This document shows, in pieces, positions 365 to 19,463 of a stretch of DNA of 20,143 nucleotides. A program made the translations under genes and the position numbers. Each line of letters opens with the position of its first letter. Positions within the stretch are counted from its first letter, which is position 1. Under the pieces are notes generated by a model, which searched no databases, was not told the origin of the DNA, and worked only from the letters and a program-made list of their open reading frames with translations. The DNA is from Candidatus Hodarchaeota archaeon (GTDB lineage: Archaea; Asgardarchaeota; Heimdallarchaeia; Hodarchaeales; Hodarchaeaceae). Location: positions 1 through 20,143 of the forward strand of contig JAEOTQ010000212.1 in assembly GCA_016839785.1 (NCBI GenBank), read 5' to 3'.

Positions 365-411
365 GTCGAAAAAAAAATGAAATAGAACATACTGATTTGG
401 GGAATTTTGGA

Positions 412-1395
412 ATGTCAGAACGAGTAATGCATTTTGATGTAATTATCGTAGGTGGAGGACCTGCGGGATTATCAGCGGGAATTGTTGCTTCAGGAAAAGG
501 GTTACGATCTGCAGTTTTTGAAGGAGGTACCTGGGGTGGTCTTTTATCGACTATCTATCCTCATAAGAAGATTTACAACTATCCAGGAACTCCAAGTATT
601 CGAGCAGATCATTTGGTTTCAGAATGGGTTAGACAAGCCGCTGATCATGGTGTACATCTAATTAAAGATCGTATTACGAAAATTTACAAAGATCTCAAGC
701 TTGAATCTGCTGAAGGAGCGACATTTCAAGCTAAATCCATTATTATTGCCACTGGTATGAAACCTAATGAGCTGGGTATTCCAGGTGAGGCTAAATTTTC
801 GAAAAAAAACCGTGGCGTTTTTCCTTATGTTACTGAGCCTGCTGCTTTCTATGATAAACGAGTACTCGTGGTTGGAGGAGGAGATACCGCTATTGATGCC
901 GTTATTGATCTCGCCAATGTGGCAGACAAGGTGTATCTAGCCCATCGACGGGATACATTTCGAGCATCGGAAATGAACTTAGCGAAAGTCACCAATGAGA
1001 AGCTAGCCGAAATCCTTTTTAAAACTAATATCTTAGAAATTGCTGGAAAACAACGAGTAGAAGCGGTCATTCTAGAAAATGTTGATACAAATGAGAAATT
1101 TGAGCTGGAAGTCGACTGTGTTGTTCTTGCAGTGGGACTTAAACCCAATACAGAAATTTTTGAAAACTTGGGTTTAAAATTCTCTGGTAATTTCATTACT
1201 GTTGATGATTTAATGCGTACGAATGTTGAGGGTATATTTGCAGCAGGTGATATTGTTACTCCTTACCAATTAGCTGCTGTAGCTGCGGCTCAAGGAGCAT
1301 TAGCTGCTCATGGAGCGTACCTGTTTATTCGTGATCCATATTGGAAACAAGAACACTTGAAAGATCAAGATGAGGTCAAAAGACAGATTTTATAA
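412..1395 (+). CDS. Thioredoxin-reductase-fold NAD(P)/FAD oxidoreductase, probably ferredoxin/flavodoxin-NADP+ reductase (YumC-like, no CxxC)
   Basis: FAD motif IIVGGGPAG; GGLLSTIYPHKKIYNYPG resembles YumC-type GGQL..LYPEK.IYD; IIIATG; NAD(P) motif VVGGGDTA; HRRDTFRA NADPH-specificity motif; TNVEGIFAAGD. GVFPYVTE sits where TrxR has GVSxCxxC. ATG 412 is preferred over TTG 397. Confidence 0.8.
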   Translation: MSERVMHFDVIIVGGGPAGLSAGIVASGKGLRSAVFEGGTWGGLLSTIYPHKKIYNYPGTPSIRADHLVSEWVRQAADHGVHLIKDRITKIYKDLKLESAEGATFQAKSIIIATGMKPNELGIPGEAKFSKKNRGVFPYVTEPAAFYDKRVLVVGGGDTAIDAVIDLANVADKVYLAHRRDTFRASEMNLAKVTNEKLAEILFKTNILEIAGKQRVEAVILENVDTNEKFELEVDCVVLAVGLKPNTEIFENLGLKFSGNFITVDDLMRTNVEGIFAAGDIVTPYQLAAVAAAQGALAAHGAYLFIRDPYWKQEHLKDQDEVKRQIL

Positions 1396-1400
1396 CTCTT

Positions 1401-2162
1401 TCAAGGAATTTTCCTTTTTTCTACCCCTGTATATTTTGCTTCTGACGGGACAATTGTTCGTACAGGACGCTGTGCGAATTCCTCTAATATATGTGCTGTG
1501 AGCCCCGTTATACGTGAAATAGCAAAGAATGCTTTTCCTATTGCGGCTTCGAATCCCATATCAGCAAGTAATGCTCCAATTGCTCCATCAACATTGAGGG
1601 GTAACGGTCGACTTGATTGGAGAGTTAATTCTGTAGCAATTATTTTTGCTAGTTCTACAAACTTCCCACTGATTCCCTCTTCCGAGGCTACATGCAATAG
1701 CTTTTTTGTTCGGGGATCATCTGTATGAAAACGATGGCCAAAACCTGGTATTCGTTGTTTTTTCTTTTTTGCTTCAGTAACTACGTTTTTAGCTAATTCT
1801 GAAAGCGATTGATCCTTTTCTTGCATTCTAAACGCGTTTTTCAGGAATTTAATACATTCCTCTCCAGCTCCACCATGATGATCGCCAACTGCAAGTATTC
1901 CAGCCCCTAAAGCTGTGGTAATGGGTACACCACAAGAGGCTACTGTTCGTGCAGTCACTGCACTAGGAGCGGTCACTCCATGATCCATAGTTGCTACTAG
2001 AATGGCATTAATGACCCTTTCTTCTTGTTTAGTTGGTAATTCTCCCTTTAGTGCTAGATAAATGCCTGTTGGATAAGAAATGGAACCGATGAGTTCATCT
2101 AGGGGGTAGCCTCTAAATAGGAGTTCATTTGGAGAGACTTTCGTAATTTTAGTTTCCCACAT
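1401..2162 (-). CDS. Citryl-CoA lyase (short citrate-synthase-fold protein)
   Basis: About 253 aa. N-terminus WETKITKV..NELLFRGYPLDELIG; motifs DHG..APSA.TAR..AS, HHGGA, IPGFGHR, DPR, LNVDG, SRITG. The length and N-terminus fit Ccl rather than a full citrate synthase. The start at MWETK (2162) is preferred over 2210. Confidence 0.8.
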   Translation of the reverse strand: MWETKITKVSPNELLFRGYPLDELIGSISYPTGIYLALKGELPTKQEERVINAILVATMDHGVTAPSAVTARTVASCGVPITTALGAGILAVGDHHGGAGEECIKFLKNAFRMQEKDQSLSELAKNVVTEAKKKKQRIPGFGHRFHTDDPRTKKLLHVASEEGISGKFVELAKIIATELTLQSSRPLPLNVDGAIGALLADMGFEAAIGKAFFAISRITGLTAHILEEFAQRPVRTIVPSEAKYTGVEKRKIP

Positions 2163-2221
2163 ACGTTTTTCTTCCTGATTTTCTGTGAGGTGAAGGGATT
2201 GTTTTAACATTTCTGAAGACC

Positions 2222-2425
2222 ATGACTAATTTTGTCAGACAACTTATAATAACTAATTCTGGACAGGATGAGGTAGCTGTCGACGATGTAGTAGTTACAG
2301 TTCATGAAGTGATGGATCCATTAACAACCGATTTTTCTTCAACATCTGATCAGGGGAACTCTACTTCCTTCTCCACTATGGCAATGATATTCGCCTTGGT
2401 TATGGTTTGTCTACTAAGTGGTTAG
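2222..2425 (+). pseudogene. Small ORF or remnant resembling the C-terminal end of a membrane-anchored surface protein
   Basis: A beta-strand-like segment DEVAVDDVVVTV, then an S/T-rich linker (TTDFSSTSDQGNSTS), then a hydrophobic stretch (FSTMAMIFALVMVCLLSG). TAG follows, and the same frame continues KRCKR. A pyrimidine/T tract lies downstream. No signal peptide. Confidence 0.4.
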
Positions 2426-2446
2426 AAACGATGTAAAAGGTATGAA

Positions 2447-2469
2447 CTTTTCCCCCCTCCCTTTTTTTT
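2447..2469 (+). terminator. Pyrimidine/oligo-T tract, candidate archaeal terminator
   Basis: ttttcccccctccctttttttt directly after the small ORF at 2222-2425. Confidence 0.35.
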
Positions 2470-2604
2470 ATATTCTTATATTTTACAAACCAGCAATGCT
2501 TAAATCCAGTGATTTTTTCTCATCTGTCATTAAGCAAACCCTTTTCGTATTGGAACTTACTACCGTTTCCTAAATGTAGTGAAGCATTAAACGGAGCTCC
2601 TATA

Positions 2605-4164
2605 ATGGCTACACATGTTACAAATGTATTGGGAAGAAAATTTCCTAAGAAGGTTTTTGGCAAAGTTTTAGAGCCATATAAGGGAATTCACAATAGCACA
2701 ATTGCAGGTAAGAGAGTGGGTACTACTTATCAAGCAACATATATCTCTCGGAAAACTAAACGCTTTTTTGATTCACTGGAAGAGCTTTTCAAGGTTTTAC
2801 CTCTTCGGGATGGGATGTCCATATCATTTCATCACGCGTTGCGAAATGGTGATAATGTTGTCCTACCTATAGTGGAAGCACTAGCATCATATGGCATTAA
2901 AAACATTACTCTTGCTATTACAGCTTTATTTCCCGTTCATTCCCCTCTAATCGAATTCATCCAATCGGGAGTAATTGGAAGGATTGAAGGAAGTGTGAAT
3001 GGCCCCTTAGGCAATGCCATATCACGAGGGGAAGTTGCAGTTCCAACTACCCTTCGTTCACATGGAGGACGGACTCGTGCTGTCCAAGAAGGAAGTTTAC
3101 CCGTCGACATTGCATTTATAGCTGCCTCAACATGTGATTATATTGGAAATTTAACAGGTATGGTCGGTAAACACGCTTTTGGCAGTTTAGGCTATCCGTT
3201 AGAAACAGATTCCTTATATGCAGACATAGTAGTTGGGGTGACTGATACTATCATCAATGAACCCTTAACACAAATCAGTATTCCTTCAAGTCGAGTCGAT
3301 TATGTGTTAACAGTGGATTCTATTGGGGATCCTGCAAAAATTGCATCGGGGAGTTTAGGAAGAAAACCCTCCCCACAAAGGTTGGCTATTGCAGAAAGCG
3401 TAGTACAAGTCATGGAACTTTCTGGCTATCTGAATATTGGATTCAATTGGCAAGCTGGAGCTGGTGGAATATCATTAGCGGCTTCTCAATATCTGAAGGA
3501 ACTTATGGCTGATAAGAATATCCGTGGAGGGTATATATTTGGGGGTATCGCGACTAATTCAGTGAAGATGCTCGAAGAAGGATTATTCAAAGCCATTTAT
3601 GATGCTCAGTCTTTTGATTTAGGTGCTATCAAATCATTAGAAGAAAATGAGAATCATGTCGAAGTGTCTATCGATCATGCGTATAATCCATATAATAAAG
3701 CCTGTATTGCACTAAATACAGATTTTACAGTTCTTGGAGCAACGGAAGTCGATCTGAACTTCAATGTTAATGTAAATACTTTTAGTAATGGACTTCTAAA
3801 TTCGGGAATAGGAGGACATCAAGATGCAGCCCGAGCCAAGGTAAGTATGATCGTGGTTCCTGTTGCTCGGAAAGTACCCTCTATTCTTGACTCAGTTACG
3901 ACAGTAAGTACACCAGGAGACAGTATTGATTTAATCATTACAGATGGTGGGATAGCGCTCAATCCGCATTCTACTCCGAAACGATCAAAGATAGAAAAGC
4001 GGTTACGGAAGGCCGGAATAAAATTAAGAGCAATAGAAGATTTGAAAGAAGAATCGTATAGTCTTGCCTCCCCAATAAGTCCTGAATTTACTTCTGATAT
4101 CGCCACACTCATTGAATATCGAGATGGTACCTATTTAGATGTGATATACCAGATGGTAGATTAA
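2605..4164 (+). CDS. citF: Citrate lyase alpha subunit / citrate CoA-transferase
   Basis: CitF motifs: N-terminal NVLGRKFP, DGMSISFHHALRNGD, LRSHGGR, QAGAGG, LGATEVDLNFNVNV, GGHQDAA, TPGDSID..ITDGGIA.NP, C-terminal IEYRDGT.LD.I. ATG 2605 (GGAG at 2593-2596) is preferred over GTG 2509. Confidence 0.92.
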   Translation: MATHVTNVLGRKFPKKVFGKVLEPYKGIHNSTIAGKRVGTTYQATYISRKTKRFFDSLEELFKVLPLRDGMSISFHHALRNGDNVVLPIVEALASYGIKNITLAITALFPVHSPLIEFIQSGVIGRIEGSVNGPLGNAISRGEVAVPTTLRSHGGRTRAVQEGSLPVDIAFIAASTCDYIGNLTGMVGKHAFGSLGYPLETDSLYADIVVGVTDTIINEPLTQISIPSSRVDYVLTVDSIGDPAKIASGSLGRKPSPQRLAIAESVVQVMELSGYLNIGFNWQAGAGGISLAASQYLKELMADKNIRGGYIFGGIATNSVKMLEEGLFKAIYDAQSFDLGAIKSLEENENHVEVSIDHAYNPYNKACIALNTDFTVLGATEVDLNFNVNVNTFSNGLLNSGIGGHQDAARAKVSMIVVPVARKVPSILDSVTTVSTPGDSIDLIITDGGIALNPHSTPKRSKIEKRLRKAGIKLRAIEDLKEESYSLASPISPEFTSDIATLIEYRDGTYLDVIYQMVD

Positions 4165-5189: not shown

Positions 5190-6776
5190 ATGGCTGAACC
5201 CATAAGTATAATACTGTTTAAAGGTCCTAAATGCGCCATGTGCCGGCCCGTTGAACGCCACCTTAAACGTATCGTTGAAACTTCTCAAGGAGGGGCAACA
5301 TTAAAGACTATAGATACGGATGAACATTCTGATATTGCTACTAAACGCTATCATGTGTATCAGGTTCCCCATGTTCTGTTTAACGATGAAGAAGTGCTTA
5401 ATGCCACCCAAGCAGCGGGAATGTTCTCTTCGTTTGGGGGTGAAGATTCTGGTATGTTTTCTTCTGAGCAGTATGATCTCTTCAATTATCTTTTTAATAA
5501 GCTGATTGAAGCCGGTGTCAAAGATAGTGAGGCTTACCGGGATCGGTGGCGAAAACTGTCCATTATCACCGTTTCTGGTCGATTATTAGACGTCGATGAA
5601 TTGGAAACGGTCATACGACCGTCCATTGGGGATTATGTTCACATAGGTCATTTACAAGCAATTGTCACATCATTAATTGCAATTAATCCCGTTGCTAAGG
5701 GGTATTTATTCCGTGCGGGTGAGTTAGCGGGGAAGTTTGGTGCTGCGCAATCGTGGTTACACAGTTATAACCGCAATATTATGAATGAACACCGGATGAA
5801 AAACCGTTTTAATGAAATGTTGAAAGGGTTCAAAATTTTGTATGGTCCAAATCCCATGGCCTTAAATGTGGCTTCTGATCTAACTATTGATCGAATTTCC
5901 GATTATCATGTTAAACTACATGTAAATGGATCAGCTCATGCGGTTGAAAATTCTGATATTGGCCAAGATGTTTGTGGGTTTTTTGCTGGGGAAATTGCGG
6001 GGTTAATTGAGGTTACTCTTGGAGAAAAAGCAGCGGTTACGGAAACCAAGTGTTGGGGACTTGGTGATAATCATTGTGAGTTTGATATCAAGCTGGGAGA
6101 AGTTTCTGATCATTATAATATTTCAAATATCGAATCGAAAGAATTTTTCAGTGAGAATGATCGTCTAAGATTTGAATTGTCCATTGGCCAAATTTCTAAA
6201 AATATGTACGAATCTCTTCTGAATAAAAAATGGATGCGGCCTGAAATCGGAGATTTTATTCATATCTCTGTCTTACAGCATATTCTTACATCCCTTAAAT
6301 TTTCTGATCCATTTAATTCAACATTATTATCATATGCTGGCCAACATTATGGACAGATCTTAGAGGATATTGGTATTATTAGCAGAATTATCAATCGTCG
6401 GGGGCTAGATGCAAAACTCCTTGGGGCTATGGAATTTGAGCAAGCTTGTGAAGTCTTGAGCTACTATTTTGATAAAAACTTAAGTTCTCCAAAAATTCTT
6501 TCTGATGTTGTGGTTCAACAGATCGATGATGAGAGTGCGATTTTCAAAGTTTGGGAGAGTGCTGCCACCTCAGGTATTGATTTAACAACGGTTGATCGAG
6601 TCAATCTATTTCCTGGGTTAGATCAACCTCCTGAAGTAAATATGCTGGATGATTTTCTTTCTGGATTTATTAATGGTAGATTAGATCTTTTCATTGAGGA
6701 AGATGTTATTGTTCGTGAAACCAAATGTCAAGCTAGTGGACACCCTCACTGTGAATTTTTAGCAGAGTTAGATTAA
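5190..6776 (+). CDS. Thioredoxin-domain protein fused to two tandem V4R (4-vinyl reductase-like) domains
   Basis: N-terminal Trx fold: FKGPKCAMC (C15/C18) and YHVYQVPH cis-Pro loop. Two repeats start RPSIGDYVHI (aa 143) and RPEIGDFIHI (aa 350) and end ETKCWGLGDNHCEF and ETKCQASGHPHCEF, matching the V4R signature E..C...G...CEF. Confidence 0.85.
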   Translation: MAEPISIILFKGPKCAMCRPVERHLKRIVETSQGGATLKTIDTDEHSDIATKRYHVYQVPHVLFNDEEVLNATQAAGMFSSFGGEDSGMFSSEQYDLFNYLFNKLIEAGVKDSEAYRDRWRKLSIITVSGRLLDVDELETVIRPSIGDYVHIGHLQAIVTSLIAINPVAKGYLFRAGELAGKFGAAQSWLHSYNRNIMNEHRMKNRFNEMLKGFKILYGPNPMALNVASDLTIDRISDYHVKLHVNGSAHAVENSDIGQDVCGFFAGEIAGLIEVTLGEKAAVTETKCWGLGDNHCEFDIKLGEVSDHYNISNIESKEFFSENDRLRFELSIGQISKNMYESLLNKKWMRPEIGDFIHISVLQHILTSLKFSDPFNSTLLSYAGQHYGQILEDIGIISRIINRRGLDAKLLGAMEFEQACEVLSYYFDKNLSSPKILSDVVVQQIDDESAIFKVWESAATSGIDLTTVDRVNLFPGLDQPPEVNMLDDFLSGFINGRLDLFIEEDVIVRETKCQASGHPHCEFLAELD

Positions 6777-6787
6777 GAAAATACCCT

Positions 6788-7381
6788 TTATCTGGTGTGT
6801 AGGAGCTTCATTACATAATATCCCCCTATTAGTCCAAACAAGTGCGAAATGAAATTTGTATCCTGGCCAATGGTTATGACGAAAAATATGAATATGAAAT
6901 AAGCCATTGACCTTCTTTCTCGCTTTGATTTTCCTTTTAATACAAATAATACTGCACCTAGTAAGCCAAAGACTGCTCCTGATGCACCTAAAGAGATGAA
7001 ATCGACTCCTAGTAAGATAAATCCAAGAGTAGCGAGATTACCTATTAAACCACTTCCTAGAAATACTAGAAAAACGAGATATCCCTTTTCTAAGTCTTCT
7101 AGACGAGTACTGAAGATCAGGAGGAAAAGCAGATTGGATGCTAGATGAACAAGATTACCATGAATCCAAAAGGCTGTAATTAGTCTATACCATTCTCCTT
7201 GTAATATCAATTCATTGATTTGCCCCCACTGAAGTATCATATCAGGCGATTGTTCTAATAACTGGTAAGGATAAAATAACATTCCTAAAAGGTATATAAT
7301 TAGCAAACTTACCTCCAAAGATAGAGTTACAAATAATGAAGGCAATTGATTCCGGATTTGACTTATTTGTTCACTAAACAT
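6788..7381 (-). CDS. Rhomboid family intramembrane serine protease
   Basis: GEWYRLITAFWIH (WR motif), H.NLVHLASN, catalytic Ser in LGASGAVFG, catalytic His in ISHLFGLIGG, and about six hydrophobic segments. Probable ATG at 7381 (or 7390), overlapping the upstream gene's stop at 7374-7376. Confidence 0.93.
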   Translation of the reverse strand: MFSEQISQIRNQLPSLFVTLSLEVSLLIIYLLGMLFYPYQLLEQSPDMILQWGQINELILQGEWYRLITAFWIHGNLVHLASNLLFLLIFSTRLEDLEKGYLVFLVFLGSGLIGNLATLGFILLGVDFISLGASGAVFGLLGAVLFVLKGKSKRERRSMAYFIFIFFVITIGQDTNFISHLFGLIGGYYVMKLLHTR

Positions 7382-8636
7382 GAGATTCATTCCTTTCTTG
7401 CACGTGAGTGTTAGTGATGATTGACCAAAGGGAAACAAACGTAATAATTAAGAGACCCCCTATACACATCGCTGCAGAGATGGGAAATAAGACATTCGAC
7501 TGATGTGTCTGGTACCCCTCAATCGACCAGAGAATGGACCACCAAATATAACCAATATACAGCATTCCTAGTCCTAGTATAATTCCATAAATTTGCCATA
7601 ATGCATTCTTTGCGTTTCTACATTGATAGCGATCAATAAGATAGAAAAGTGTGAGAGTAAAGAACGGGAAGATCATTGGTATGTAGTGGGGATAAAGAAT
7701 TCGATTAAATGCAAGGAAGATTGTAACTATCGGTAGTACACAGACATAAATTTCTAATGGATCCTTAAATTCCATATAATAGAAAATAATAACACCAATT
7801 ACTGTAAAAAGGAGAAGTTGTATAATAAATGGAAAGAGAGTCGGTGACAATTCTGTAAAAATATACACATAGAATGACATGCTTGGGTCGAGACGATCTG
7901 TATGAACTAAGAAAACATCAGTAATGAATTCTGTTGGTGCTAAAAGAAGGAATGGCAGCGATACCAGTGTAAAGGTTAATCCAGCAACTAACCCGATCTG
8001 AAATGAAGCAAACCGTCTGTTTTTTAATCCCCAGATGAGAATTGGAATTATATAAACTCCTGCTATTGGTTTGATAAGTAGGGCTAATCCAAAGCATATT
8101 CCACTCAAAGTCATTCTCTCTTGTACAAAACAAAGAAATGCAAGTAGAATGAATAATAACATGTAGTTCTCATGATAACCTCCCAGAGTTATTCCTAAGG
8201 TTGATGGGTTTAATAAGAACCAGTTAAATGCCAGAAGGGCGATTTTTTTACCATAGTTAGTATTTATCAGGTGATATATGAGGAATGCGACAAGAAAATT
8301 GATAAGAACCAGAAACATTTTCACCATGTTGAATGTAAAGATATCTACTCCGACAACAAACATAAGAGCAGCGAGTGTATATAAATACAAAGGTGGATAT
8401 TGAGGATTAGGAAGAATAATTCCATTGTACACAATTTGATGAATATCCCGATATAATAGGTCACCTTGGGCAATTTGGCGAGCAGTTTCTACCTGTAAAA
8501 CGAAATCGATGGGATTAAAATAGATTATTGCGACAATGACTTGGAGAACTAAATTTAAAATGCTGGATACAACTAACCACTTATTTTCTTGAAGGAAGTT
8601 GTTAATAACTATAGAATAATGCCACATTGTACCCAT
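7374..8636 (-). CDS. GT-C fold polytopic glycosyltransferase (PIG-M/GT50- or GT87-like mannosyltransferase)
   Basis: Many TM segments. First loop PIDF..QVETARQIAQG..LY...QYPPLY; WFLLNP; GLALLIKP; LVHTDRLD.SMSFYVY; FLAFNRILYPHY. The motif order is typical of lipid-phosphate-sugar-dependent GT-C enzymes. Confidence 0.75.
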   Translation of the reverse strand: MGTMWHYSIVINNFLQENKWLVVSSILNLVLQVIVAIIYFNPIDFVLQVETARQIAQGDLLYRDIHQIVYNGIILPNPQYPPLYLYTLAALMFVVGVDIFTFNMVKMFLVLINFLVAFLIYHLINTNYGKKIALLAFNWFLLNPSTLGITLGGYHENYMLLFILLAFLCFVQERMTLSGICFGLALLIKPIAGVYIIPILIWGLKNRRFASFQIGLVAGLTFTLVSLPFLLLAPTEFITDVFLVHTDRLDPSMSFYVYIFTELSPTLFPFIIQLLLFTVIGVIIFYYMEFKDPLEIYVCVLPIVTIFLAFNRILYPHYIPMIFPFFTLTLFYLIDRYQCRNAKNALWQIYGIILGLGMLYIGYIWWSILWSIEGYQTHQSNVLFPISAAMCIGGLLIITFVSLWSIITNTHVQERNESHV

Positions 8637-8849: not shown

Positions 8850-11393
8850 GTGGCTCGTAGGAAACCAGCAGCTCCGCAAATTGCTTTCTTTATTGTCAAC
8901 CATGGAATTCCTACTGTGAGTATAGGCTTTAGCAATGAACAAAGTGTTTTATTCGGTGGAATATTGACTGCTATTTCATCATTGACAAGTTCAGAAACTG
9001 GGATGGGGTTGTTGGATGACATTCAAGCTGAAAAGGGACGAATTTTTATCCAAAATGTTGGTCATGATTCTCTCGTCGGATTTTTCATTTGGAGTAAGAC
9101 CCATTTTGAACAAAAGATTGAGGGTCAAATCAAAGTTCTAGCAGGAGTTTTAGGAAACAAGTACCTTTCTGATTACATCTGGAATCCCGCATTTGAAGAA
9201 ATATTACTCGTTGGTTCTTTACCAGAACGATTTCAGGTCAAATTATGTTATCAAGCTGTTGTTGCTTGGCGGAAACAGGTTCGCCATTCACCATTTCGTG
9301 AAACCGACACTTTGGAAAAATTATTAACAGGAATAGATAAGGATTTTATTCAAGATGCACTGGGTTTAACATTAGCAGATTTAACCTATGCAGAGAAAAT
9401 TGAAAATGTCATTAATGAAGCTGTATGGCTTGCGTTGGGATCTTTATTAAAAGATGATATGTCCATATTAATAACTGCAAGAAAAATTGAATCTATTCTA
9501 CCAACTCTGCGATCCAAGATTAAAACCATTATTACTCAGGAAATTAATCTTCAAGGACCTGCTGCTGTATTGAACCAGGTGATGAAAGACATTGAATTTC
9601 ATTGGCCTGAGAGCCAGCCAAAACAAGTAACAGCTGGTTTACTACTTAAAGAATTTATTTCTGGCTATGTAGATACTCCGTTTGGGGAACAGGGTTTAGT
9701 AATTACCAAACAACTCCTTGATCTTGCTTTTCCAAACAAAACTCTTGATACGATTTTTCAATCGGGAGAACTAATTCAAATGTTAACCGAAGAAGAGGCT
9801 CATTTTAATTTTCGAAAAAATCCCTTCTTCAACGCTTTTTTAAGTTTTTTAATAGAGCTAACTCCAGAAAAAATAAAACCATTGAGTGGGTCTCAGCTCA
9901 AAAAAGAGTTAACGGGCTTAATTTCACGTAATAGACCTCTGCCTAGTATGGAGATCGATCGAGTATACGATTTATCAGGGAACCCTGAAACTGCAACCTA
10001 CGCTCAAAAATCCCTTGAAAATGCTTTGATTAAAACTACCTCATCTTTATTGTCTTATCTATTAATAGGTAATAATTCTAACGTAGGAAAGGTATTTTCA
10101 GACCTAACTTCCTATATTAAACAACTTGCTGAACGGGTGGAAGAGGTTAATCATCTTACTACATTTTTACAAGATTTACTTAACTATAAATGGCGTACGG
10201 TAATCCTTAATGGGTGTTTACCCTCCATCCAAGAGTTAAACACCACTAATATCTGTTCCATACTTAAAAATGATCCTGGTAAATACATCAAGCAATTTGA
10301 GCAAAATAATTCTCGTAAAATTCACGAAGAACTTCGAGAACCTCTTCTTTCAGCTATCGAAAATGCATGGATAAGTTTGAAGAGTGGAAATTCTACTTTA
10401 GACATTGAGATGCGCTTTGATTACCCTAATCATGAAAGCATTACAAAAAAAGTCGTAAATGGACTGAAAAAACTCTCAAAGAAGGTTAAATCCAAGAAGA
10501 ACATAAATGACCAGGAAATCGCATCAATAAAAGACTATGTGAACAAAGAGATTCAACGGCTAGAAGAGAAACTTTCGAAAGAAATCAACGGTTTTGAGAA
10601 GCTTATTCTAGCAAGGAAAGTACCTGAACCTCCCTGGTTTAAATTTGTACAAACAGACTCAGGTTGGCAGGTTCCTGAATCTTCAGCGATACTGAAACAC
10701 GTTTCTACAATTTTTACAATGGAAAATCTTTTTCCCAAAAAAGATAAAGAAAGTAAACAGGCGTATGCAGTGTTTGATCAACTCAATGGTCTACATTTTG
10801 CTATTGAGATGATTACAGCAAATCATTTCTATGATCAGATTCCTTCCAAGTTAATAAACATGGTCGAACATCCAGTAAAGTTTGAAAAGAATCAGGCAAT
10901 CAAAACCCTTCGAGAAATGCGGTATAATGAAGGAGTTATTGCATTAAGAGATTATTTAGTGTCAAACGCTGGGTTAATTACTTCCCTCCTCTCCCAAGGA
11001 TTTGCATCAATTAAGGATTCTTACATTAAGAATAATCCTGAGGTCCTAATGGACGATGAAAATCTCCAGAACCCAAATTATCTCCATCTTATGGAAATCC
11101 CTCGTGAAATTCTAGAAGATGTGCCTCCAGCAGATATATTTGGTGATAATTACTTTAATTACTTAACTACACATAATACGGTTAAAATTGGGTTTCATTT
11201 ATCCAAATGGAAAGGAAGAGGGAATGATTTGTATGAGTTACTTATATCTTCAAGTTCTTTGGAAAATGCTTATTTGTATAAACAAGCAACAAAAATCCTT
11301 GGGCATTTTTCAGGTTATGTTTATTCAGCCGCAGTTGGGAACTTGGAAGTTTGTCCACCTGAACTAACACGAATTAGTGACTTATTTCTATAG
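8850..11393 (+). CDS. Large hypothetical protein with N-terminal longin-like domain and a basic coiled-coil segment
   Basis: 847-aa ORF with GTG start and GAGGA upstream. The N-terminus FFIVNHGIP...SVLFGGILTAISSLTSSETGMGLLDDI..EKGRIFI follows the Asgard longin pattern GIP...LF.G.L.AI..F..E...G.L..I. The rest appears mostly helical and includes KKVVNGLKKLSKKVKSKK...EIQRLEEKLSKEI. Confidence 0.65.
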   Translation: MARRKPAAPQIAFFIVNHGIPTVSIGFSNEQSVLFGGILTAISSLTSSETGMGLLDDIQAEKGRIFIQNVGHDSLVGFFIWSKTHFEQKIEGQIKVLAGVLGNKYLSDYIWNPAFEEILLVGSLPERFQVKLCYQAVVAWRKQVRHSPFRETDTLEKLLTGIDKDFIQDALGLTLADLTYAEKIENVINEAVWLALGSLLKDDMSILITARKIESILPTLRSKIKTIITQEINLQGPAAVLNQVMKDIEFHWPESQPKQVTAGLLLKEFISGYVDTPFGEQGLVITKQLLDLAFPNKTLDTIFQSGELIQMLTEEEAHFNFRKNPFFNAFLSFLIELTPEKIKPLSGSQLKKELTGLISRNRPLPSMEIDRVYDLSGNPETATYAQKSLENALIKTTSSLLSYLLIGNNSNVGKVFSDLTSYIKQLAERVEEVNHLTTFLQDLLNYKWRTVILNGCLPSIQELNTTNICSILKNDPGKYIKQFEQNNSRKIHEELREPLLSAIENAWISLKSGNSTLDIEMRFDYPNHESITKKVVNGLKKLSKKVKSKKNINDQEIASIKDYVNKEIQRLEEKLSKEINGFEKLILARKVPEPPWFKFVQTDSGWQVPESSAILKHVSTIFTMENLFPKKDKESKQAYAVFDQLNGLHFAIEMITANHFYDQIPSKLINMVEHPVKFEKNQAIKTLREMRYNEGVIALRDYLVSNAGLITSLLSQGFASIKDSYIKNNPEVLMDDENLQNPNYLHLMEIPREILEDVPPADIFGDNYFNYLTTHNTVKIGFHLSKWKGRGNDLYELLISSSSLENAYLYKQATKILGHFSGYVYSAAVGNLEVCPPELTRISDLFL

Positions 11394-11418: not shown

Positions 11419-12774
11419 TTATTCTCCATAAATATTTAATATTTCGTTACGCCAAGGATGGTAGTCGGCAGGATCTGCAGGGAAGTTTTCGTACAGAGAC
11501 CTAGCCTTATCCATCTGTTTTAAAATGCCTCTAAATTTCAATAATGTTCCCAGTATTCGTTTTCCACGCCAAGCACGTAGTAAATTCACCATAAAGCCAC
11601 TGGAAATATTTCCTGACGCATTTCCATATAGTAAATCATTAGCTCCGAGAATTTCTTTATGAAAAATCTCATTAATGATTGAACTGGGCATGGGAATGAT
11701 AAAATCTTTCATAATTGCCAGCGGGGCATTAATAGCGGCAAGACTTCTCATGAATTGTACATTATAATCCCATAAACCTTCCATGGACACATTATCATTT
11801 TCTAATGCAGGAACAATGGTCGTACTTGCCATTGCTGCAGCATTAACGGAAATACCGATACCTCCTCCATCGGTGGGTTTAACTTGGGTTCCAGAATCGC
11901 CAATAAGCATGAAACCATTCCAAATGAGATTATCTTGAGGACGTCTAAGCGGTACACGCCAAGCACCTCCATGAATTAGTTTAGAATCTTCATAAAGGGC
12001 TTTTGATTGTTCAATAAAAACATCAAACTGCTTGTGAGGATTCATTTGGTAGTTTCGCATTACTCCTAATCCCGTATTCATGGAATGGGGACCTCTTGGA
12101 AATTCCCAGATATATCCCCCCTTTGCGACATCTTGATCGAAGATTAATCGGATAAATTCAGGAGATTCAATTTCAGGTTTTACATCTCTAATCTCACGAT
12201 AACAATTGCATATATCTTTTGGAGCTAATTCCAAATCCATAAATGTTTTTTCAGGATTTAATTTAGTTCTCAATACTCCAATGATCCCTGAAGCATCAAT
12301 GATCACCTTTCCATTCATCTCATGGATATTTTTGTCTTTTCCCCGGTATTTAATTCCTGTTACATAATCATTCGTAATTATCGGTTCTTTTACCATCGCT
12401 TCATCGAATAATTCGGCTCCAAAGTCAACTGCATCTTCCAATACACGCATGCCGAGTTTAAACCTGTCAATAATAATTCCCGTTCCTCCTTCTTCGACAA
12501 GTTCAAGTTTAATTTCCCGATCTGGAGAATATAACCAGGCCCCTGCCACTTTTTGAACTACCTCATCACCCTTTGGTGGATCAACTTTGGTAATATGCTG
12601 AATGCGTTTGAAATGCTCACCACTAGTAGCATCACCACATATTTTTACACCGATTTTTTCTTTTGGTTGTCGGTCTAACAACGCGACCTTCAGGCCTTTG
12701 TTAGCAAGTGCCGCCGCAGCCATACTGCCTGCAGTACCAGCACCAGTAATTACAACATCATAATTAGTGGTCAT
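11419..12774 (-). CDS. Geranylgeranyl reductase family flavoprotein (digeranylgeranylglycerophospholipid reductase-like)
   Basis: YDVVITGAGTAG FAD motif, KICGD, IDR, VIIDASG, GYIWEFP (YxWxFP GGR motif), LIGDSG..V.PTDGGGI. Confidence 0.88.
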   Translation of the reverse strand: MTTNYDVVITGAGTAGSMAAAALANKGLKVALLDRQPKEKIGVKICGDATSGEHFKRIQHITKVDPPKGDEVVQKVAGAWLYSPDREIKLELVEEGGTGIIIDRFKLGMRVLEDAVDFGAELFDEAMVKEPIITNDYVTGIKYRGKDKNIHEMNGKVIIDASGIIGVLRTKLNPEKTFMDLELAPKDICNCYREIRDVKPEIESPEFIRLIFDQDVAKGGYIWEFPRGPHSMNTGLGVMRNYQMNPHKQFDVFIEQSKALYEDSKLIHGGAWRVPLRRPQDNLIWNGFMLIGDSGTQVKPTDGGGIGISVNAAAMASTTIVPALENDNVSMEGLWDYNVQFMRSLAAINAPLAIMKDFIIPMPSSIINEIFHKEILGANDLLYGNASGNISSGFMVNLLRAWRGKRILGTLLKFRGILKQMDKARSLYENFPADPADYHPWRNEILNIYGE

Positions 12775-12846: not shown

Positions 12847-13968
12847 TCAGCTAAAGGATAATTTGTCTAATTTTTTCATTAGGGAAGATTGAGTTTTTCC
12901 ACGGATTTCCATTTGTTCTTTAAGAAAATCGATACTATCCACTGTATTCGGATTTTGGTCATTTAGTAAAGCAAGGTAGATGGAAATATAATCGCCTAGA
13001 TACGTTGCCGTAACCATTTGAGTGAGTAAATTACCTGAAACCACTTGAATTTCAAGTATTTCTACCTTAGGTTTAATAATTTCTTTGGAAATCTCGAATC
13101 GAAGAGAAACATTCGCGTGTTCTAAGGGAAAGCGAAAAACTATCACAATAAAGGGATTATTCTTTGCTAGGCTCTGAAAACCCACTATATGGTTATGGTT
13201 GAGTTCGGGTAATTCTTCAGCAATAGCAAGTTGTTTAGAATTTTCATTAATCTGACACTTTAGACGATTGGCTACACAGAAAAATGGGGACCAAATGACA
13301 GGAATGCGGTTTTGTAGTTTTTTAGCAATTTTTTTTGCTTGATTCTCGGATGCTTGTGTCTGAGGTCGTATGAGTTCCCTTAGTTCTTTCAAGTTTTGAA
13401 TAACTTCTTGGATAACATCATCTTCTAAATTAATAATGTTCATTGAGTCAAGTATTTTTAAAATGGGGAATAGTAGCAAGGGAAAGGACGCACGGGGTTG
13501 ATTTCCAGCAGGAATTTTGAAGTAAGGTATTTTATTTGATATACAAAAGTTTTCCATCTTTCCTCCACTTCCTACGCATATTATTGGGCATTTTTTCTTT
13601 ATTGCGGAGCTCATTCCCGAGATCGTTTCTTCTGTATTGCCAGAATACGAAATAGCAATGACTAATGTATTGCCAGAGGCAAATTTAGGCAAAGTATAAT
13701 TTCGTTGTACGATTATTGGTATATCTAGGGAATTAGCGTAATATGTGGAAATATAATCCCCACTTACCGCTGATCCACCCATTCCACAAATCAAAATATG
13801 AGATATGTCGTTCTTATAACTGATAAGGGTCGTACCAATCGAAATTTCAGAGGGAATATCAATTGATTGATCCATTATCTTTTCAATTAAGCTAGGCCAT
13901 GTAAAAACCATTCCAAGCATGTCATCGGTATCTAAACCCGAGATTTTCTGTAAATCGTCAATATCCAT
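12847..13968 (-). CDS. Bifunctional phosphoglucose/phosphomannose isomerase (SIS-domain, archaeal type)
   Basis: ICGMGGSA, ISYSGNTEET, GSGGK, QPRAS, KCQINENSK, PELNHN, C-terminal VDSIDFLK. Confidence 0.92.
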   Translation of the reverse strand: MDIDDLQKISGLDTDDMLGMVFTWPSLIEKIMDQSIDIPSEISIGTTLISYKNDISHILICGMGGSAVSGDYISTYYANSLDIPIIVQRNYTLPKFASGNTLVIAISYSGNTEETISGMSSAIKKKCPIICVGSGGKMENFCISNKIPYFKIPAGNQPRASFPLLLFPILKILDSMNIINLEDDVIQEVIQNLKELRELIRPQTQASENQAKKIAKKLQNRIPVIWSPFFCVANRLKCQINENSKQLAIAEELPELNHNHIVGFQSLAKNNPFIVIVFRFPLEHANVSLRFEISKEIIKPKVEILEIQVVSGNLLTQMVTATYLGDYISIYLALLNDQNPNTVDSIDFLKEQMEIRGKTQSSLMKKLDKLSFS

Positions 13969-14121
13969 CTCAATAACCCATGAATTCTATCTTTACCAAG
14001 CTCACAAAGTCTTGCTTTCATTAATTTGTCTCTTTGATATCTCAAGAATATATCATCCTCATGTTGTCTGAGTAAGATGTGGCCTAAAAATGGTCGAGGA
14101 TTATTGATAGATGAGTGCAAA

Positions 14122-14592
14122 ATGCAAACAGCCTACTTGGAAATCATTCATTTTCTCGGAGACACTGGTTATTATGCCAGAACAGAGACAGAAAGAGGTA
14201 TTTTGACTACTCTTTCTGAAAAAGGACTGATTCAGTTAAAAAAAGGAACTAAAAGTGTTTATTGTTTGACTAATATTGGTGAGAGATATCTTCAAGGTCA
14301 AAAACCCATGAAAGCAGATCTAAGTGATAATCAGTTTCTCTCACTACTAAGAGAAGCTTATACTTCCTTAGCCACCCCAATGAAACCATTGGTTCGCATA
14401 CCTGAGATCCGTGAAAAATTAAACACCAGAAACCCGATCCCCGATCCCTATTTCGATAAGAAGGTTCTATCCTTTCATGACCAAGGGGTCCTAACTTTAC
14501 AAACTGCGATGTCTAAATCTCATGCAGGATATGGAGGTATTAATTCCAATACTGGAACAGGTGTTTTTTACTACTTAACTTTTGAGGCCTAG
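14122..14592 (+). CDS. Putative DNA-binding protein with two winged-helix-like domains (RcaD-like by recollection)
   Basis: N-terminal LTTLSEKGLIQL....VYCLTNIGERYL is a typical wHTH wing plus helix. C-terminal LVRIPEIREKL....FDKKVLSFHDQGVLTLQ...GGI....GVFYY. It ends 6 nt before the ATPase gene. ATG 14122 is preferred over 14077. Confidence 0.6.
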   Translation: MQTAYLEIIHFLGDTGYYARTETERGILTTLSEKGLIQLKKGTKSVYCLTNIGERYLQGQKPMKADLSDNQFLSLLREAYTSLATPMKPLVRIPEIREKLNTRNPIPDPYFDKKVLSFHDQGVLTLQTAMSKSHAGYGGINSNTGTGVFYYLTFEA

Positions 14593-14598
14593 ATTAAG

Positions 14599-15969
14599 AT
14601 GACTCAAGTTACCAATCTAATTATAGAAAATCCTTTTCATAATTTTACTGCACGAGCGGACGTACCTGAAATATTCAATCTGTTACGCCCGAATAAAGAT
14701 GCTATAAATAGAATTTCTCATGCGCTTGAAACCGTAAGAAAACAAAAGAGGGAATCAATGATTGTCCCAGTCATAGCTGAGGCTGGATACGGAAAAACTC
14801 ATTTTTATTGGGTTGTTCGCGAGCAGGTCACGAATGCATATGTTGTTTACGTTCCTGTACCAACTAATCCAAATAGAATTTATTCCCACTTTTACTTCGA
14901 GACGGTTAAAGCAGGAGGTTCGGCTCTTTTGGAGTATGTTGCGGATTTCCTTGTTCAGAAGTATAAAAAGGTTGAAAATGCTGCATTCGAGTTTCCTGGC
15001 CTAGGAAATGTTGTTATCGAAGGTTTTTTTGCTCTTAAAGATCCTAAACAATCAAAATTGGCCCTCAAATGGTTTACCGGTTTTGATATCGATGAAGAAA
15101 CCAAATCATTTCATAGAACTATTATGGATGATGAAGAACTAGCGTTTGCAGCTCTCAAGGTTATTCTGAAGTCTGTGGACAAACCACTAATTTTCTTTGT
15201 AGATGAGTTAGAATCTCTTTTTATTTCCCTGGGACCTGAAGCAGAGCTTCAATTATTAGAAAGTATCAAAAAGATGCATAATGAGGCGAGTAATTTTGTT
15301 CTCTGTCTTGCCTGTCTGGCGACTTTATGGGATAAAATCCTTGATCTATCTAGCACCGCAGTTCAAAGTCGTATTGAACCCCCTATCCTGTTAAAGCGAT
15401 TTACTAAAAACGATATTCAAGATTACTGTGTTCACATGTTAAAAGATTTTCATCAAAAATTTGACCTTTCTTTGTCGGAAGAAAACTCTACTTGGCCTTT
15501 AGGGAAATCAGATATTGAATCTGCCTATGCCTATTCTCATGGAAACCCTCGTGAGGCAATCAAGTGGTTAGCGGGTGTAACTGAAGAGAAAAAAGCCCCT
15601 ATATTAAAAGAATTAGGAAAAAATCAGAAATTTCTAAGTAATCACGGTAAAAAGATCAAATCTGCACTTGGAAAACCCAAAGGAGTTACAATTGGAGTTC
15701 TTCAGCGAAACAATGGGCTTCAAATTTCGGTTTCTGAAAAGGATAATCGGTACTTGATAATAATTCCCCCTCAAATAGATCTGGAACCAATATTCGAAAA
15801 TTCATTCATTGAAGGGTTAAAAGAAGACCTCGCCAAAGAAAACTATTCCGAGGTCATTTTACTTGGTGAAGAGACACCCTTCAAGAAAAACGAGATGGAA
15901 GTCACTTCTTTCTCAAAAGATGATATAAAAGGTTTAACGGAATACGTGGAGAAAATTTCTAAAAATTAA
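14599..15969 (+). CDS. AAA+/STAND-like P-loop ATPase with uncharacterised C-terminal domain
   Basis: N-terminal NPF, Walker A AEAGYGKT (aa 60-67), Walker B IFFVDELE, Arg-finger-like VQSRI, sensor-2-like GNPREAI. Confidence 0.85.
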   Translation: MTQVTNLIIENPFHNFTARADVPEIFNLLRPNKDAINRISHALETVRKQKRESMIVPVIAEAGYGKTHFYWVVREQVTNAYVVYVPVPTNPNRIYSHFYFETVKAGGSALLEYVADFLVQKYKKVENAAFEFPGLGNVVIEGFFALKDPKQSKLALKWFTGFDIDEETKSFHRTIMDDEELAFAALKVILKSVDKPLIFFVDELESLFISLGPEAELQLLESIKKMHNEASNFVLCLACLATLWDKILDLSSTAVQSRIEPPILLKRFTKNDIQDYCVHMLKDFHQKFDLSLSEENSTWPLGKSDIESAYAYSHGNPREAIKWLAGVTEEKKAPILKELGKNQKFLSNHGKKIKSALGKPKGVTIGVLQRNNGLQISVSEKDNRYLIIIPPQIDLEPIFENSFIEGLKEDLAKENYSEVILLGEETPFKKNEMEVTSFSKDDIKGLTEYVEKISKN

Positions 15970-15994
15970 TGAGTAATAGATCTTTTACAGGAAT

Positions 15995-16462
15995 CTATTT
16001 CAATAATAGCCGCATTTCACTTGTTTTTGTAAATCCTAGTTGGGTATAAAGTTCCTTTCCCATCTCAGTTGCATGTAACGTCACTTTATTTATGCCCATC
16101 TGTTCTATCTTGGTAAGAGCTTCCTCAAGTAATTTTCGAGCAATTCCCTGTCGCCGATAAGTGGATAGTGTGCATAAATTCATCAAATACGCAATTTTCC
16201 CTGATAGATTACGAGGACCTGGTGGATGTTGATCGATAATAAGACCGATATTACTCACAATTACTCCCTTCGTATTTACTGCGACCCATCCATAAAATTC
16301 TTCTGTTGGAATTACTCGCTTAAAATAGTTTTCTGCTGCTGAATCTCCTGCTTCCAATAATTCAACGTCATCATGTCCCATAGATTCGAACATTAGGCGT
16401 CTTAACTTCACTAATGATGGTATATCTGAAATCGTTGCTTTTCTGATAGAAATAGAGTCCAT
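15995..16462 (-). CDS. GNAT family N-acetyltransferase
   Basis: IRKATISDI N-terminus, acetyl-CoA motif YRRQGIARKLL, and LHAT.MGKELYTQLGF. Confidence 0.92.
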   Translation of the reverse strand: MDSISIRKATISDIPSLVKLRRLMFESMGHDDVELLEAGDSAAENYFKRVIPTEEFYGWVAVNTKGVIVSNIGLIIDQHPPGPRNLSGKIAYLMNLCTLSTYRRQGIARKLLEEALTKIEQMGINKVTLHATEMGKELYTQLGFTKTSEMRLLLK

Positions 16463-16487
16463 TATCTTCCATCCCGCCTGAAACTTC

Positions 16488-16501
16488 TTTAAGTACTTAA
16501 A
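16488..16501. promoter_or_regulatory. Perfect 14-bp palindrome TTTAAGTACTTAAA; candidate bidirectional TATA element or operator for GNAT and hypD
   Basis: Reads TTTAAGTA on both strands. It lies in the 71-bp gap, 26-39 nt from the GNAT ATG (16462) and 33-46 nt from the hypD ATG (16534). Confidence 0.55.
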
Positions 16502-16533
16502 TACTTAGTAGAATTAGGAGAGCTTTACATTTA

Positions 16534-17652: not shown

Positions 17653-17668
17653 ACCATAGGTATAGTGA

Positions 17669-19315: not shown

Positions 19316-19463
19316 AATTAGAGGACTCTCCAGTAAATTGTCACTATCAGAAAATTCTTGAACTCTGTCAACAAAAATGTGTCTTATCAGAACTCTAGAG
19401 ATTCTTTTACACACGTCCGTGAGTAATGCCTGAAATTAAAGATTCTTTCTTTGCGTGAAGCAA

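Follow-up and report, generated by a model that had tools for sequence, protein, structure and literature searches.

The window analysed here, a complete contig of 20,143 nucleotides from a Hodarchaeales genome (4.04 Mb, 84.5% complete), carries two overlapping minus-strand genes, one for a multi-pass glycosyltransferase (GT) of the GT-C type and the other for a rhomboid intramembrane protease. Our analyses favour, with a probability of roughly 70%, the reading that the GT is a glycolipid glycosyltransferase dependent on a lipid-phosphate hexose, and not an orthologue of PIG-M, and that the rhomboid is a separate housekeeping passenger in the same operon. PIG-M adds the first mannose when glycosylphosphatidylinositol (GPI) anchors are made. 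A preliminary description of the window had joined the two genes into a GPI-like anchoring and sorting module. This claim did not hold: the adjacency of the genes breaks, the rhomboid is not a rhombosortase, and the C-terminal sorting signals of the genome have a heimdallarchaeosortase of their own. The attribution of the DNA to a probable Asgard archaeon was borne out by the closest homologues: those of the GT (77 matches), where named, are mostly from Hodarchaeales or Heimdallarchaeota, and 17 of 22 loci are Asgard records.

Gene distributions were followed in 22 genomes of the genus and in 83 genomes of the class Heimdallarchaeia. Genomes of the same genus are kin, and adjacency counts among them are not independent of one another. 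Labels beginning with G, L, P and C are working labels for genomes, loci, proteins and contigs, respectively; the source genome is G000 and the window is C194.

The glycosyltransferase has the fold of PIG-M

Single-sequence searches gave the GT no firm family. With hmmscan, three Pfam families matched, each under its cut-off: GT87 (E 3.3e-5), PMT_2 (6.7e-5) and PIG-U (2.8e-4). The PIG-M family, PF05007 (cut-off 23.4 bits), gave no match at E<=0.1; seven PIG-M controls scored 169-253 bits against it. The GT87 match (PF09594, cut-off 25 bits) is borderline, at 24.2 bits by hmmscan and 25.8 bits in the genome search. Among 75 relatives, matches at E<=0.1 were to GT87 in 60, weakly to PIG-U in 21 and to PF05007 in 9. 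The ESM Atlas features of the GT lead to GT87-like clusters, bacterial and archaeal alike, and a PIG-M query, once the PIG-M and PIG-U clusters are set aside, retrieves ALG3 first and bacterial clusters after it.

Comparisons of whole families and of folds point to PIG-M. When a profile of the 75 relatives was run against the PDB, it retrieved three GPI mannosyltransferase 1 chains (E 7e-22, more exactly 6.8e-22, to 1e-20), with PimE at 0.39 and no ALG3, ALG6 or PIG-U chain at E<=10. Profile-profile alignment of the GT family with PIG-M by hhalign gave a probability of 99.6% (E 1.1e-24). The AlphaFold model of the GT has a mean predicted local distance difference test (pLDDT) value of 94.5, and its best Foldseek match is Candida glabrata Gpi14 (9wno_A; E 7e-8, template modelling score 0.69). 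The two superpose over 364 residues with a Z score of 31.4, a root-mean-square deviation (rmsd) of 3.4 and 18% identity, followed by ALG3 (Z 28.4), PIG-U (27.7), ALG6 (25.7) and PimE (25.2, rmsd 5.2). The top fold matches are thus glycolipid-handling GT-C proteins, and both the model and the alignment show the GT-C N-terminal membrane module with an Asp in the first external loop. The fold and profile comparison suggested in the preliminary description therefore names Gpi14/PIG-M as the nearest solved relative, well ahead of PimE and GT87, and all six GT motifs quoted there are present in the translation and colinear with those of real PIG-M sequences. The PIG-M likeness of the GT exceeds chance.

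Most active-site residues of Gpi14 have counterparts in the GT by alignment. According to the accessible part of PMC12653191, D39 of Gpi14 is the catalytic base, and E140, K173, H239, R242, Q318, Y319 and W322 contact the donor head group. D44, E156, K189, H245, R248 and Y318 of the GT align with Gpi14 D39, E140, K173, H239, R242 and Y319, so that the base and five of the seven donor residues are retained; H317 and M321 take the places of Q318 and W322. In the 59 core relatives D44, K189, H245, R248, H317 and Y318 are invariant, position 156 is E or D, and the position of M321 is mostly F. Since Q318 and W322 contact the C4 and C6 hydroxyls of the sugar in the same account of Gpi14 (PMC12653191), the donor of the GT need not be mannose.

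The first Asp of the DxD motif is replaced by Pro, as the preliminary description had remarked: Pro42 is found in 59/59 core relatives, while DxD is present in 11/11 PIG-M rows of the alignment. This replacement, together with the weak Pfam match to PIG-U and the PIG-U Z score, could mean that the GT is a non-catalytic, PIG-U-like scaffold, and in the available text of PMC12653191 both Asp residues are needed in PIG-M. We consider this scarcely credible, given that D44, K189, H245, R248 and Y318 are invariant in all 59 relatives and that PIG-U itself has SSW at the DxD position (PMC12653191, same portion). PimE offers a precedent, because D58 is the sole essential residue of the pair there and the upstream D55 can be spared, as described in the part available of 10.1101/2024.09.17.613550. 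With D44 and most of the donor residues conserved, and the upstream Asp dispensable in PimE too, the GT is likely an active enzyme.

A second motif, HxxRxD..SxY, was also singled out as notable in the preliminary description, and its distribution speaks for that description. The complete set of H245, R248, D250, S254, Y256, Q273 and N311 occurs in 11/11 PIG-M rows, in 10/10 rows of the GT orthogroup and in 0/67 others, among 88 rows in total. Because the trees reject PIG-M orthology (see below), this motif would have been kept twice from an ancestor, and PIG-M and the GT may still share chemistry.

The glycosyltransferase is not a PIG-M orthologue

The PIG-M reference set comprised 16 near-full-length sequences from metagenome contigs, obtained by a motif scan (16 used of 120 loci returned). 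Against a profile of these sequences the GT scored 44.6 bits in a local search, ranking 46th of 232 fetched proteins. The genome profile search with the PIG-M profile missed this same GT, and genome-search negatives on weak matches are soft for that reason. In Asgard genomes, 86 of 400 matched the PIG-M profile at E<=1e-6. The highest scores came from four genomes of the group f28, of which three reached 86-96 bits along almost the full model, compared with 35-53 bits for the GT orthologues; one f28 homologue is named Sifarchaeia. Of 587 bacterial genomes, drawn from three phyla, none scored above 54 bits, and that best match covered the N-terminal module only. A one-protein search of cluster representatives (192 matches) brought in no true PIG-M among the first 101 of 148 new homologues, the best PF05007 match having an E of 8e-8.

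Residue counts tell a similar story. At 73 columns conserved in PIG-M, the GT agrees at 22, its family at 22-26, the f28 clade at 27-29 and proteins that fuse GT87 to GH99 at 19-29. As a control, a profile built from 13 of these fusions (one named Chloroflexota) also retrieved GPI mannosyltransferase 1 first (E 2e-14), and a model of a fusion control matched ALG3 (Z 26.5) and Gpi14 (Z 25.5) in a tie. A best match to PIG-M is therefore common among prokaryotic GT-C proteins and does not imply GPI synthesis.

The phylogeny was inferred from 32 rows and 333 columns under LG+C20, after 17 rows, mostly long branches, had been dropped from a 49-row set. PIG-M forms one clade (100/99), and the GT falls in a clade of nine rows (98/98), those with a label being Heimdallarchaeia; support for the deep branches is weak. 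The archaeal clade of the GT is separate from the bacterial proteins sampled, whereas a grouping with bacterial GT87/DUF2029 proteins would have counted against the PIG-M affinity proposed in the preliminary description. In a quick tree of all 49 rows, one long-branched bacterial row stands beside PIG-M (Shimodaira-Hasegawa-like approximate likelihood ratio test 89). Over 1000 bootstraps, PIG-M had an unlabelled trio as its sister in 749 and the wider clade of the GT alone in 30.

In approximately unbiased (AU) tests, holding PIG-M together with the GT orthogroup was rejected (p 1.9e-5), while its placement with any of three other clades was not, these being the wider Heimdallarchaeia (0.124), f28 (0.215) and fusion (0.224) clades. 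When PIG-M was regrafted onto all 49 branches under two models, the GT orthogroup was again rejected (p 4e-4 and 1.5e-6), as was a three-row bacterial clade (p 0.001 and 0.0003). We therefore rejected the GT as a PIG-M orthologue: it lacks a PF05007 match, it has PxD, the tree tests exclude it (AU p<0.001), and the f28 proteins score twice as high.

Better candidates for the sister of PIG-M can be named, namely the f28 clade and the unlabelled trio. The f28 proteins (L206:1345-2619 (+), L207 and L208) are the most PIG-M-like Asgard proteins that we found, and they carry the QY..W motif. An f28 protein scores 44.7 bits against PF05007, over the cut-off; by eye its gene adjoins TFB-like and proteasome-beta-like genes, and no rhomboid-like open reading frame (ORF) was seen at locus L206. 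The trio (P0154, P0161 and P0173; GT-C proteins of 313-351 residues) is the commonest sister of PIG-M, with weak support (75/59).

The survey also yielded PIG-M-like GT-C domains whose fusion partner is either a GH99-like endo-mannosidase domain or a GtrA/DPMS membrane domain (P0095, P0102, P0107-P0109 and P0116; P0110, P0169 and P0209). These fusions are from records named Chloroflexota and Thermoplasmatota, and several retain DxD-like and NK..QY motifs. An 82-kb contig from a viral collection (L205) matches the PIG-M motif pattern exactly. No open frame listed for L205 carries the motif, and the match is for that reason probably chance or a fragment.

The rhomboid is a probable housekeeping protein, relocated in some genomes

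The rhomboid is a clear member of PF01694 (E 5.5e-22, 78.9 bits, cut-off 22.6). H74, H79, N83, G132-x-S134-G135 and H180 are invariant in 22/22 aligned relatives, so the Ser/His dyad (S134 and H180) is kept, as had been claimed. The likeness to a rhombosortase suggested there was not substantiated: the protein scores 36.1 bits against TIGR03902 (cut-off 84) and 27.7 bits against GlpG (cut-off 250). It is the sole rhomboid found in the genome. A rhomboid match is present in 65 of the 83 class genomes, mostly as a single copy.

The two genes lie on the same strand with both reading frames intact, in agreement with the preliminary description. The overlap it reported was confirmed at 8 nt, but the start and stop codons themselves do not overlap: the rhomboid ATG (7381-7379) precedes the GT stop codon TAG (7376-7374) by 2 nt. 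Longer rhomboid frames could begin at TTG/ATG codons at 7438 and 7390, and close relatives align from the ATG at 7381. The overlap makes translational coupling of the GT and the rhomboid probable, and the two genes are probably co-transcribed, to judge from this overlap only. In the contigs of three RNA-labelled runs (small shares of each), neither gene was covered, and a scan for sigma-70 promoters and terminators found nothing above shuffled sequences, with a model that is ill-suited to an archaeon. Our literature searches found no paper on this GT family or on the GT-rhomboid pair, and none describing such a pair among the papers listed on Asgard archaea and rhomboids, judged by titles and the beginnings of abstracts.

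Within the genus, the GT is present in 18 genomes, the rhomboid orthologue in 16 and both in 15. The genes are adjacent in 10 of these 15, and overlap or nearly overlap wherever they are adjacent. In the other five, the GT gene runs directly into a gene for a V4R-domain protein, and the rhomboid lies at a distance, which is 86 kb within one contig in G008 and megabases in G010. In the rhomboid tree, the five relocated copies and that of G021 form one clade (99/97), with the adjacent copies basal. Since the tree groups the relocated copies, the adjacency appears ancestral in the genus and broken about once, with additional losses. Outside the genus, the two genes are on different contigs in 7/7 genomes that have both, and a rhomboid lies within 1.5 kb of 0/12 GT loci. 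Of the conservation of the adjacency across Asgard archaea that was to be looked for, the part that stands is its age within the genus (10/15); it is broken in 5/15 there and in 7/7 outside.

The relocated rhomboids have genes for radical SAM, decarboxylase, M42 peptidase, GNAT, small GTPase and DNA glycosylase proteins as neighbours, with no GT-C protein among the neighbours scanned. No PF01694 match is present in three genomes that carry the GT, G001 (94% complete), G017 (90%) and G007 (71%). Separately, a family of class genomes (f4; G025, G027 and ten more) has the rhomboid in 0/12, compared with 14/14 control genomes, which looks like a lineage-wide loss of a protease that is otherwise near-universal.

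A looser relationship between the two genes should also be weighed, in which they encode co-expressed envelope enzymes and the GT, or other proteins of glycosylation, might be trimmed or degraded by the rhomboid, as has been suggested for Haloferax RhoII. The tight junction is maintained in 10 genomes whose GTs are 44-75% identical; furthermore, the accessible parts of two reports describe altered S-layer N-glycosylation upon RhoII deletion (PMC4343526) and dispensable Haloferax rhomboids that work at the cell surface (PMC11985538). However, the genes around the GT largely keep their order throughout the genus, and other neighbours accompany it more steadily than the rhomboid does. Among 17 named archaeal loci, the V4R gene lies downstream of the GT in 15, a gene encoding an 847-residue protein is present in 15, a geranylgeranyl reductase gene in 16 and a sugar isomerase gene in 13, while the rhomboid follows the GT in 9. 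The GT also persists in G001 and G017, where no rhomboid matched. We regard such coupling as distinctly unlikely.

The C-terminal sorting signals have their own enzyme

The genome encodes many proteins that could be anchored at the C terminus. Of 2906 ORFs of at least 150 codons, 116 have an N-terminal hydrophobic stretch and a single C-terminal helix, and many of these combine a linker rich in Thr with a PGF-like motif and a basic tail. When 15 tails were tested against the Heimdall-CTERM profile NF045529, 10 matched, one of them over the cut-off, and the genome search gave 45 Heimdall-CTERM matches at E<=0.1. The cognate enzyme is present as well. A motif filter of 435 membrane segments, followed by an NCBIfam scan of 12 candidates, identified a heimdallarchaeosortase (NF045528, 278.4 bits, cut-off 130) at C222:14528-15280 on the minus strand (L294), outside the window and beside ribosomal-type genes; the enzyme was tested for in G000. 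A reading of Heimdall-CTERM as an orphan signal left to the rhomboid, which the failure of PF09721 to detect the enzyme in G000 would allow, was rejected given the NF045528 score of 278 bits. PF09721 gave no archaeosortase match in G000 and matched 5/22 genomes in the genus. A second, patchy group of the exosortase/archaeosortase family (TIGR04178; L283, L284, L285 and L287) occurs in four genomes of the genus and is distinct from NF045528; no homologue of these PF09721-like ORFs was found in G000.

These observations bear on the proposal that the rhomboid cleaves C-terminal anchors and hands the proteins to a glycolipid that the GT builds, in the manner of a rhombosortase. The overlap, the ancestral adjacency in the genus and the intact dyad agree with it, as do the 116 candidate ORFs, and the accessible portions of PMC3237569 and 10.1101/2023.06.07.544157 provide rhombosortase as a precedent for a rhomboid that processes C-terminal anchors. 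The tails, however, are those of Heimdall-CTERM with its own enzyme in place, and the rhomboid falls far below the TIGR03902 cut-off. No GlyGly-CTERM match was found among 37 candidates scored in G000, although the controls were silent too. The distribution of the signal is also at odds with this proposal. Heimdall-CTERM is present in 82 of the 83 class genomes at E<=0.1 (53 over the cut-off), while the rhomboid is present in 65; it persists in the rhomboid-less G001, G007, G009, G015 and G017 and in 12/12 f4 genomes (rhomboid 0/12). In the available part of PMC3237569, by comparison, rhombosortase accompanies its signal in 104/108 genomes. The co-occurrence of the rhomboid with C-terminal signals that was to be looked for is thus not seen. 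In addition, no GT-C domain was seen in any of the 105 longer rhomboids listed, a weak test. The module is largely refuted already, and we hold it to be highly improbable. Literature searches on Heimdall-CTERM and Loki-CTERM found no occurrence of either in the records listed.

Proposed function of the glycosyltransferase

We propose that the GT would act as an inverting GT-C enzyme on the outer face of the membrane, taking a hexose from a polyprenyl-phosphate sugar, for which dolichyl-phosphate mannose is the best guess. K189, H245, R248 and Y318 would bind the donor, and Asp44 would serve as the base that activates the acceptor hydroxyl. The acceptor would most likely be a dolichol-linked glycan destined for AglB, or else an archaeal glycolipid; AglB/STT3 is found in the genome (E 3.1e-42). 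PIG-M has many prokaryotic cousins, and the GT would be one of them, from a clade centred on Heimdallarchaeia. The rhomboid would be the single general-purpose rhomboid of the genome; its place behind the GT would date from the genus ancestor, and neither gene would need the other. The fold, the matching residues, the position in the tree and the distribution of the genes are observed here, and the activity, donor, acceptor and co-transcription are deduced from them and from the overlap.

Several points weigh against this reading. The HxxRxD..SxY-Q-N set, otherwise confined to PIG-M, has to be counted as a retained ancestral motif. The two mannose-contacting residues differ, leaving the donor sugar uncertain. 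The tests do not reject a PIG-M that branches from the stem of the wider Heimdallarchaeia clade (p 0.12-0.46), and the trees were built without ALG3, ALG6 and PIG-U sequences. With respect to the rhomboid, adjacent pairs always overlap or nearly do so, and the five non-adjacent genomes amount to about one event, not five. An indirect link of the two genes is plausible because RhoII deletion alters S-layer N-glycosylation in Haloferax (PMC4343526, from the accessible text).

It is also conceivable that the GT performs the PIG-M reaction itself, placing mannose on a glucosaminyl-archaetidylinositol, with the product left free or used as an anchor by the heimdallarchaeosortase and the rhomboid uninvolved. 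Methanogens are known to have a glucosaminyl-inositol archaeal lipid. Gpi14 is the best structural and profile match of the GT, and the HxxRxD..SxY-Q-N set is common to PIG-M and this orthogroup alone. Also present in the genome are a gene resembling archaetidylinositol-phosphate synthase (NF040950, 127.8 bits, below its cut-off of 180), two PF02585 deacetylases, the 45 Heimdall-CTERM matches and the heimdallarchaeosortase, and the conserved block of the GT includes a lipid reductase and a phosphomannose isomerase. Published work, in its available part, also assigns GPI-pathway genes an Asgard ancestry (PMC12872458). On the other hand, orthology is rejected, and the 22 of 73 PIG-M columns compare with 27-29 in f28 and up to 29 in the GT87-GH99 fusions. 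The PF02585 and inositol synthase genes are on other contigs, with no GT-C gene evident among the neighbouring ORFs by eye, and PF02585 also matches 8/14 control genomes. The synteny is weak evidence, because the block also contains unrelated genes. Taken together, PIG-M chemistry seems unlikely.

Further proteins of the GPI pathway were also looked for. No match to the PIG-M partner PIG-X/Pbn1 (PF08320) was found in G000, itself 84.5% complete, with the controls silent, and the same holds for PF04113 and PF04188, among the PIG-T/PIG-V searches, in G000 with silent controls. Gaa1 (PF04114) is over the cut-off in 0/22 genomes of the genus, where the controls were again silent. In a check for the PIG-K family, C13 peptidases (PF01650) were found in 11/22 genomes of the genus and were missing from nine GT-positive ones; they do not track the GT. 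One of them, at L279:1002-2237 (-) (G000:C87), is a secreted-looking protein of 412 residues (PF01650, 9.6e-18) with no C-terminal helix by eye. No paper was found on archaetidylinositol and GPI anchors, or on Asgard archaea together with GPI anchors and PIG-M; PMC10307638 does not mention GPI, and 10.1101/2025.10.15.682550 concerns ALG1/ALG2 and has no bearing on the GT.

The most far-reaching version of the idea is that the GT mannosylates a glucosaminyl-inositol archaeal lipid, which the heimdallarchaeosortase, and not the rhomboid, attaches to Heimdall-CTERM proteins as an anchor. We consider this improbable. If true, it would amount to a working GPI-like anchor in the lineage proposed as sister to eukaryotes, and mannosylation of such a lipid by the GT would make the origin of the GPI anchor testable with one protein. 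The more modest addition made here is a GT-C family of Asgard archaea, itself uncharacterised, together with a good model and a map of its active site, the Asgard ancestry of the pathway having already been published at pathway level. In the accessible parts of the sources, GPI-anchor synthesis is termed 'unambiguously Asgard-derived', with a supplementary row giving an Asgard weight of 1.0 over 14 clusters (PMC12872458), and four possible Asgard donations to the GPI pathway are listed (10.64898/2026.05.08.723234); either source may already cover PIG-M.

Neighbouring genes

The features of the window are collected in Table 1. The reductase and the isomerase are encoded on the strand of the GT, and a link of lipid and mannose metabolism is possible. 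The thioredoxin-V4R protein, convergent with the gene pair, is 67-95% identical within the genus, and a roadblock/LC7 gene lies upstream of it in seven named loci. The 847-residue protein is encoded by a single ORF here and in 3/17 named loci, and by two ORFs (about 254 and 598 residues) in most others; since most relatives have two ORFs, it is probably a fusion in this sub-lineage. Where this gene is missing (L069 and L072), the reductase gene directly precedes the GT. A 621-residue ORF at L079:5980-7845 (+) joins the N-terminal half of the GT to a DHHA1-containing part, which represents a rearrangement or a misassembly. The remaining genes of the window have nothing connected with the GT and the rhomboid.

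Table 1. Features of the 20,143-nucleotide window
Feature	Position	Strand	Basis or remark
GT-C glycosyltransferase, 420 aa, multi-pass membrane protein	7374..8636	-	Hodarchaeales orthogroup member; PIG-M/ALG3/PIG-U/GT87 fold group
Asp44 of the GT, aligned to Gpi14 catalytic base D39 (second Asp of DxD)	8505..8507	-	alignment with 16 PIG-M sequences; D in 59/59
H245-x2-R248-x-D250-x3-S254-x-Y256 motif of the GT	7869..7904	-	H245/R248 match phosphate-binding H239/R242 of Gpi14
Rhomboid intramembrane serine protease, 197 aa	6788..7381	-	PF01694 match, Ser/His dyad intact
Dyad codons of the rhomboid	S134 6982-6980; H180 6844-6842	-	rhomboid
Overlap of GT end with rhomboid start, 8 nt	7374..7381	-	read from sequence
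Thioredoxin-like and double V4R protein	5190..6776	+	Pfam; convergent with GT-rhomboid pair
847-aa protein, no Pfam/NCBIfam match over cut-off	8850..11393	+	divergent from GT, 213-nt gap
Geranylgeranyl reductase family (archaeal lipid saturation)	11419..12774	-	TIGR02032 194 bits (cut-off 158.8); NF041080 362 (580)
Bifunctional phosphoglucose/phosphomannose isomerase	12847..13968	-	NF006426 313 bits (cut-off 295); TIGR02128 260 (214)
Contig-edge fragment, thioredoxin-reductase-like oxidoreductase, citrate-synthase-like, CitF, 171-aa winged-helix-like, AAA ATPase, GNAT, HypD, alpha-amylase-family glycosidase	1-201, 397-4164, 14077-19967		

Comparison with known systems

The closest known system for the GT is PIG-M/Gpi14 (PF05007; CAZy family GT50; PDB 9wno, 23gf and 23gx). 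The two share the fold over 364 residues, the colinear motifs, the catalytic Asp and HxxRxD..SxY, and the GT has equivalents of Gpi14 E140, K173, H239, R242 and Y319. The GT differs in its 18% identity, the absence of a PF05007 match, PxD in place of DxD, the replacement of Q318 and W322, the lack of the RHNF insert, and a genome in which no PIG-X/Pbn1 was found. ALG3, ALG6 and PIG-U have the same fold, but PIG-U is without the catalytic residues that the GT keeps. GT87/DUF2029 (PF09594; PimE, PDB 9dm5) also has this fold and is the commonest Pfam label, and databases name the relatives of the GT accordingly; PimE itself, however, is distant both by profile (E 0.39 against 7e-22 for Gpi14) and by superposition (rmsd 5.2).

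For the rhomboid, the rhombosortase/GlyGly-CTERM system (TIGR03902, TIGR03501) provides a partial parallel, in that a rhomboid that would be of the active type, from its residues, is found in a genome with many apparently C-terminally anchored proteins. Unlike that system, the rhomboid scores 36 bits against a cut-off of 84, no GlyGly-CTERM matched, and there is no co-occurrence with the local sorting signal. The Haloferax rhomboids Rho1 and RhoII (PF01694) are a closer likeness, being small proteins of the housekeeping type with a Ser/His dyad; no extra domain is present in ours. The actual C-terminal sorting system of this genome is heimdallarchaeosortase/Heimdall-CTERM (NF045528, NF045529), encoded on C222 and not in the window.

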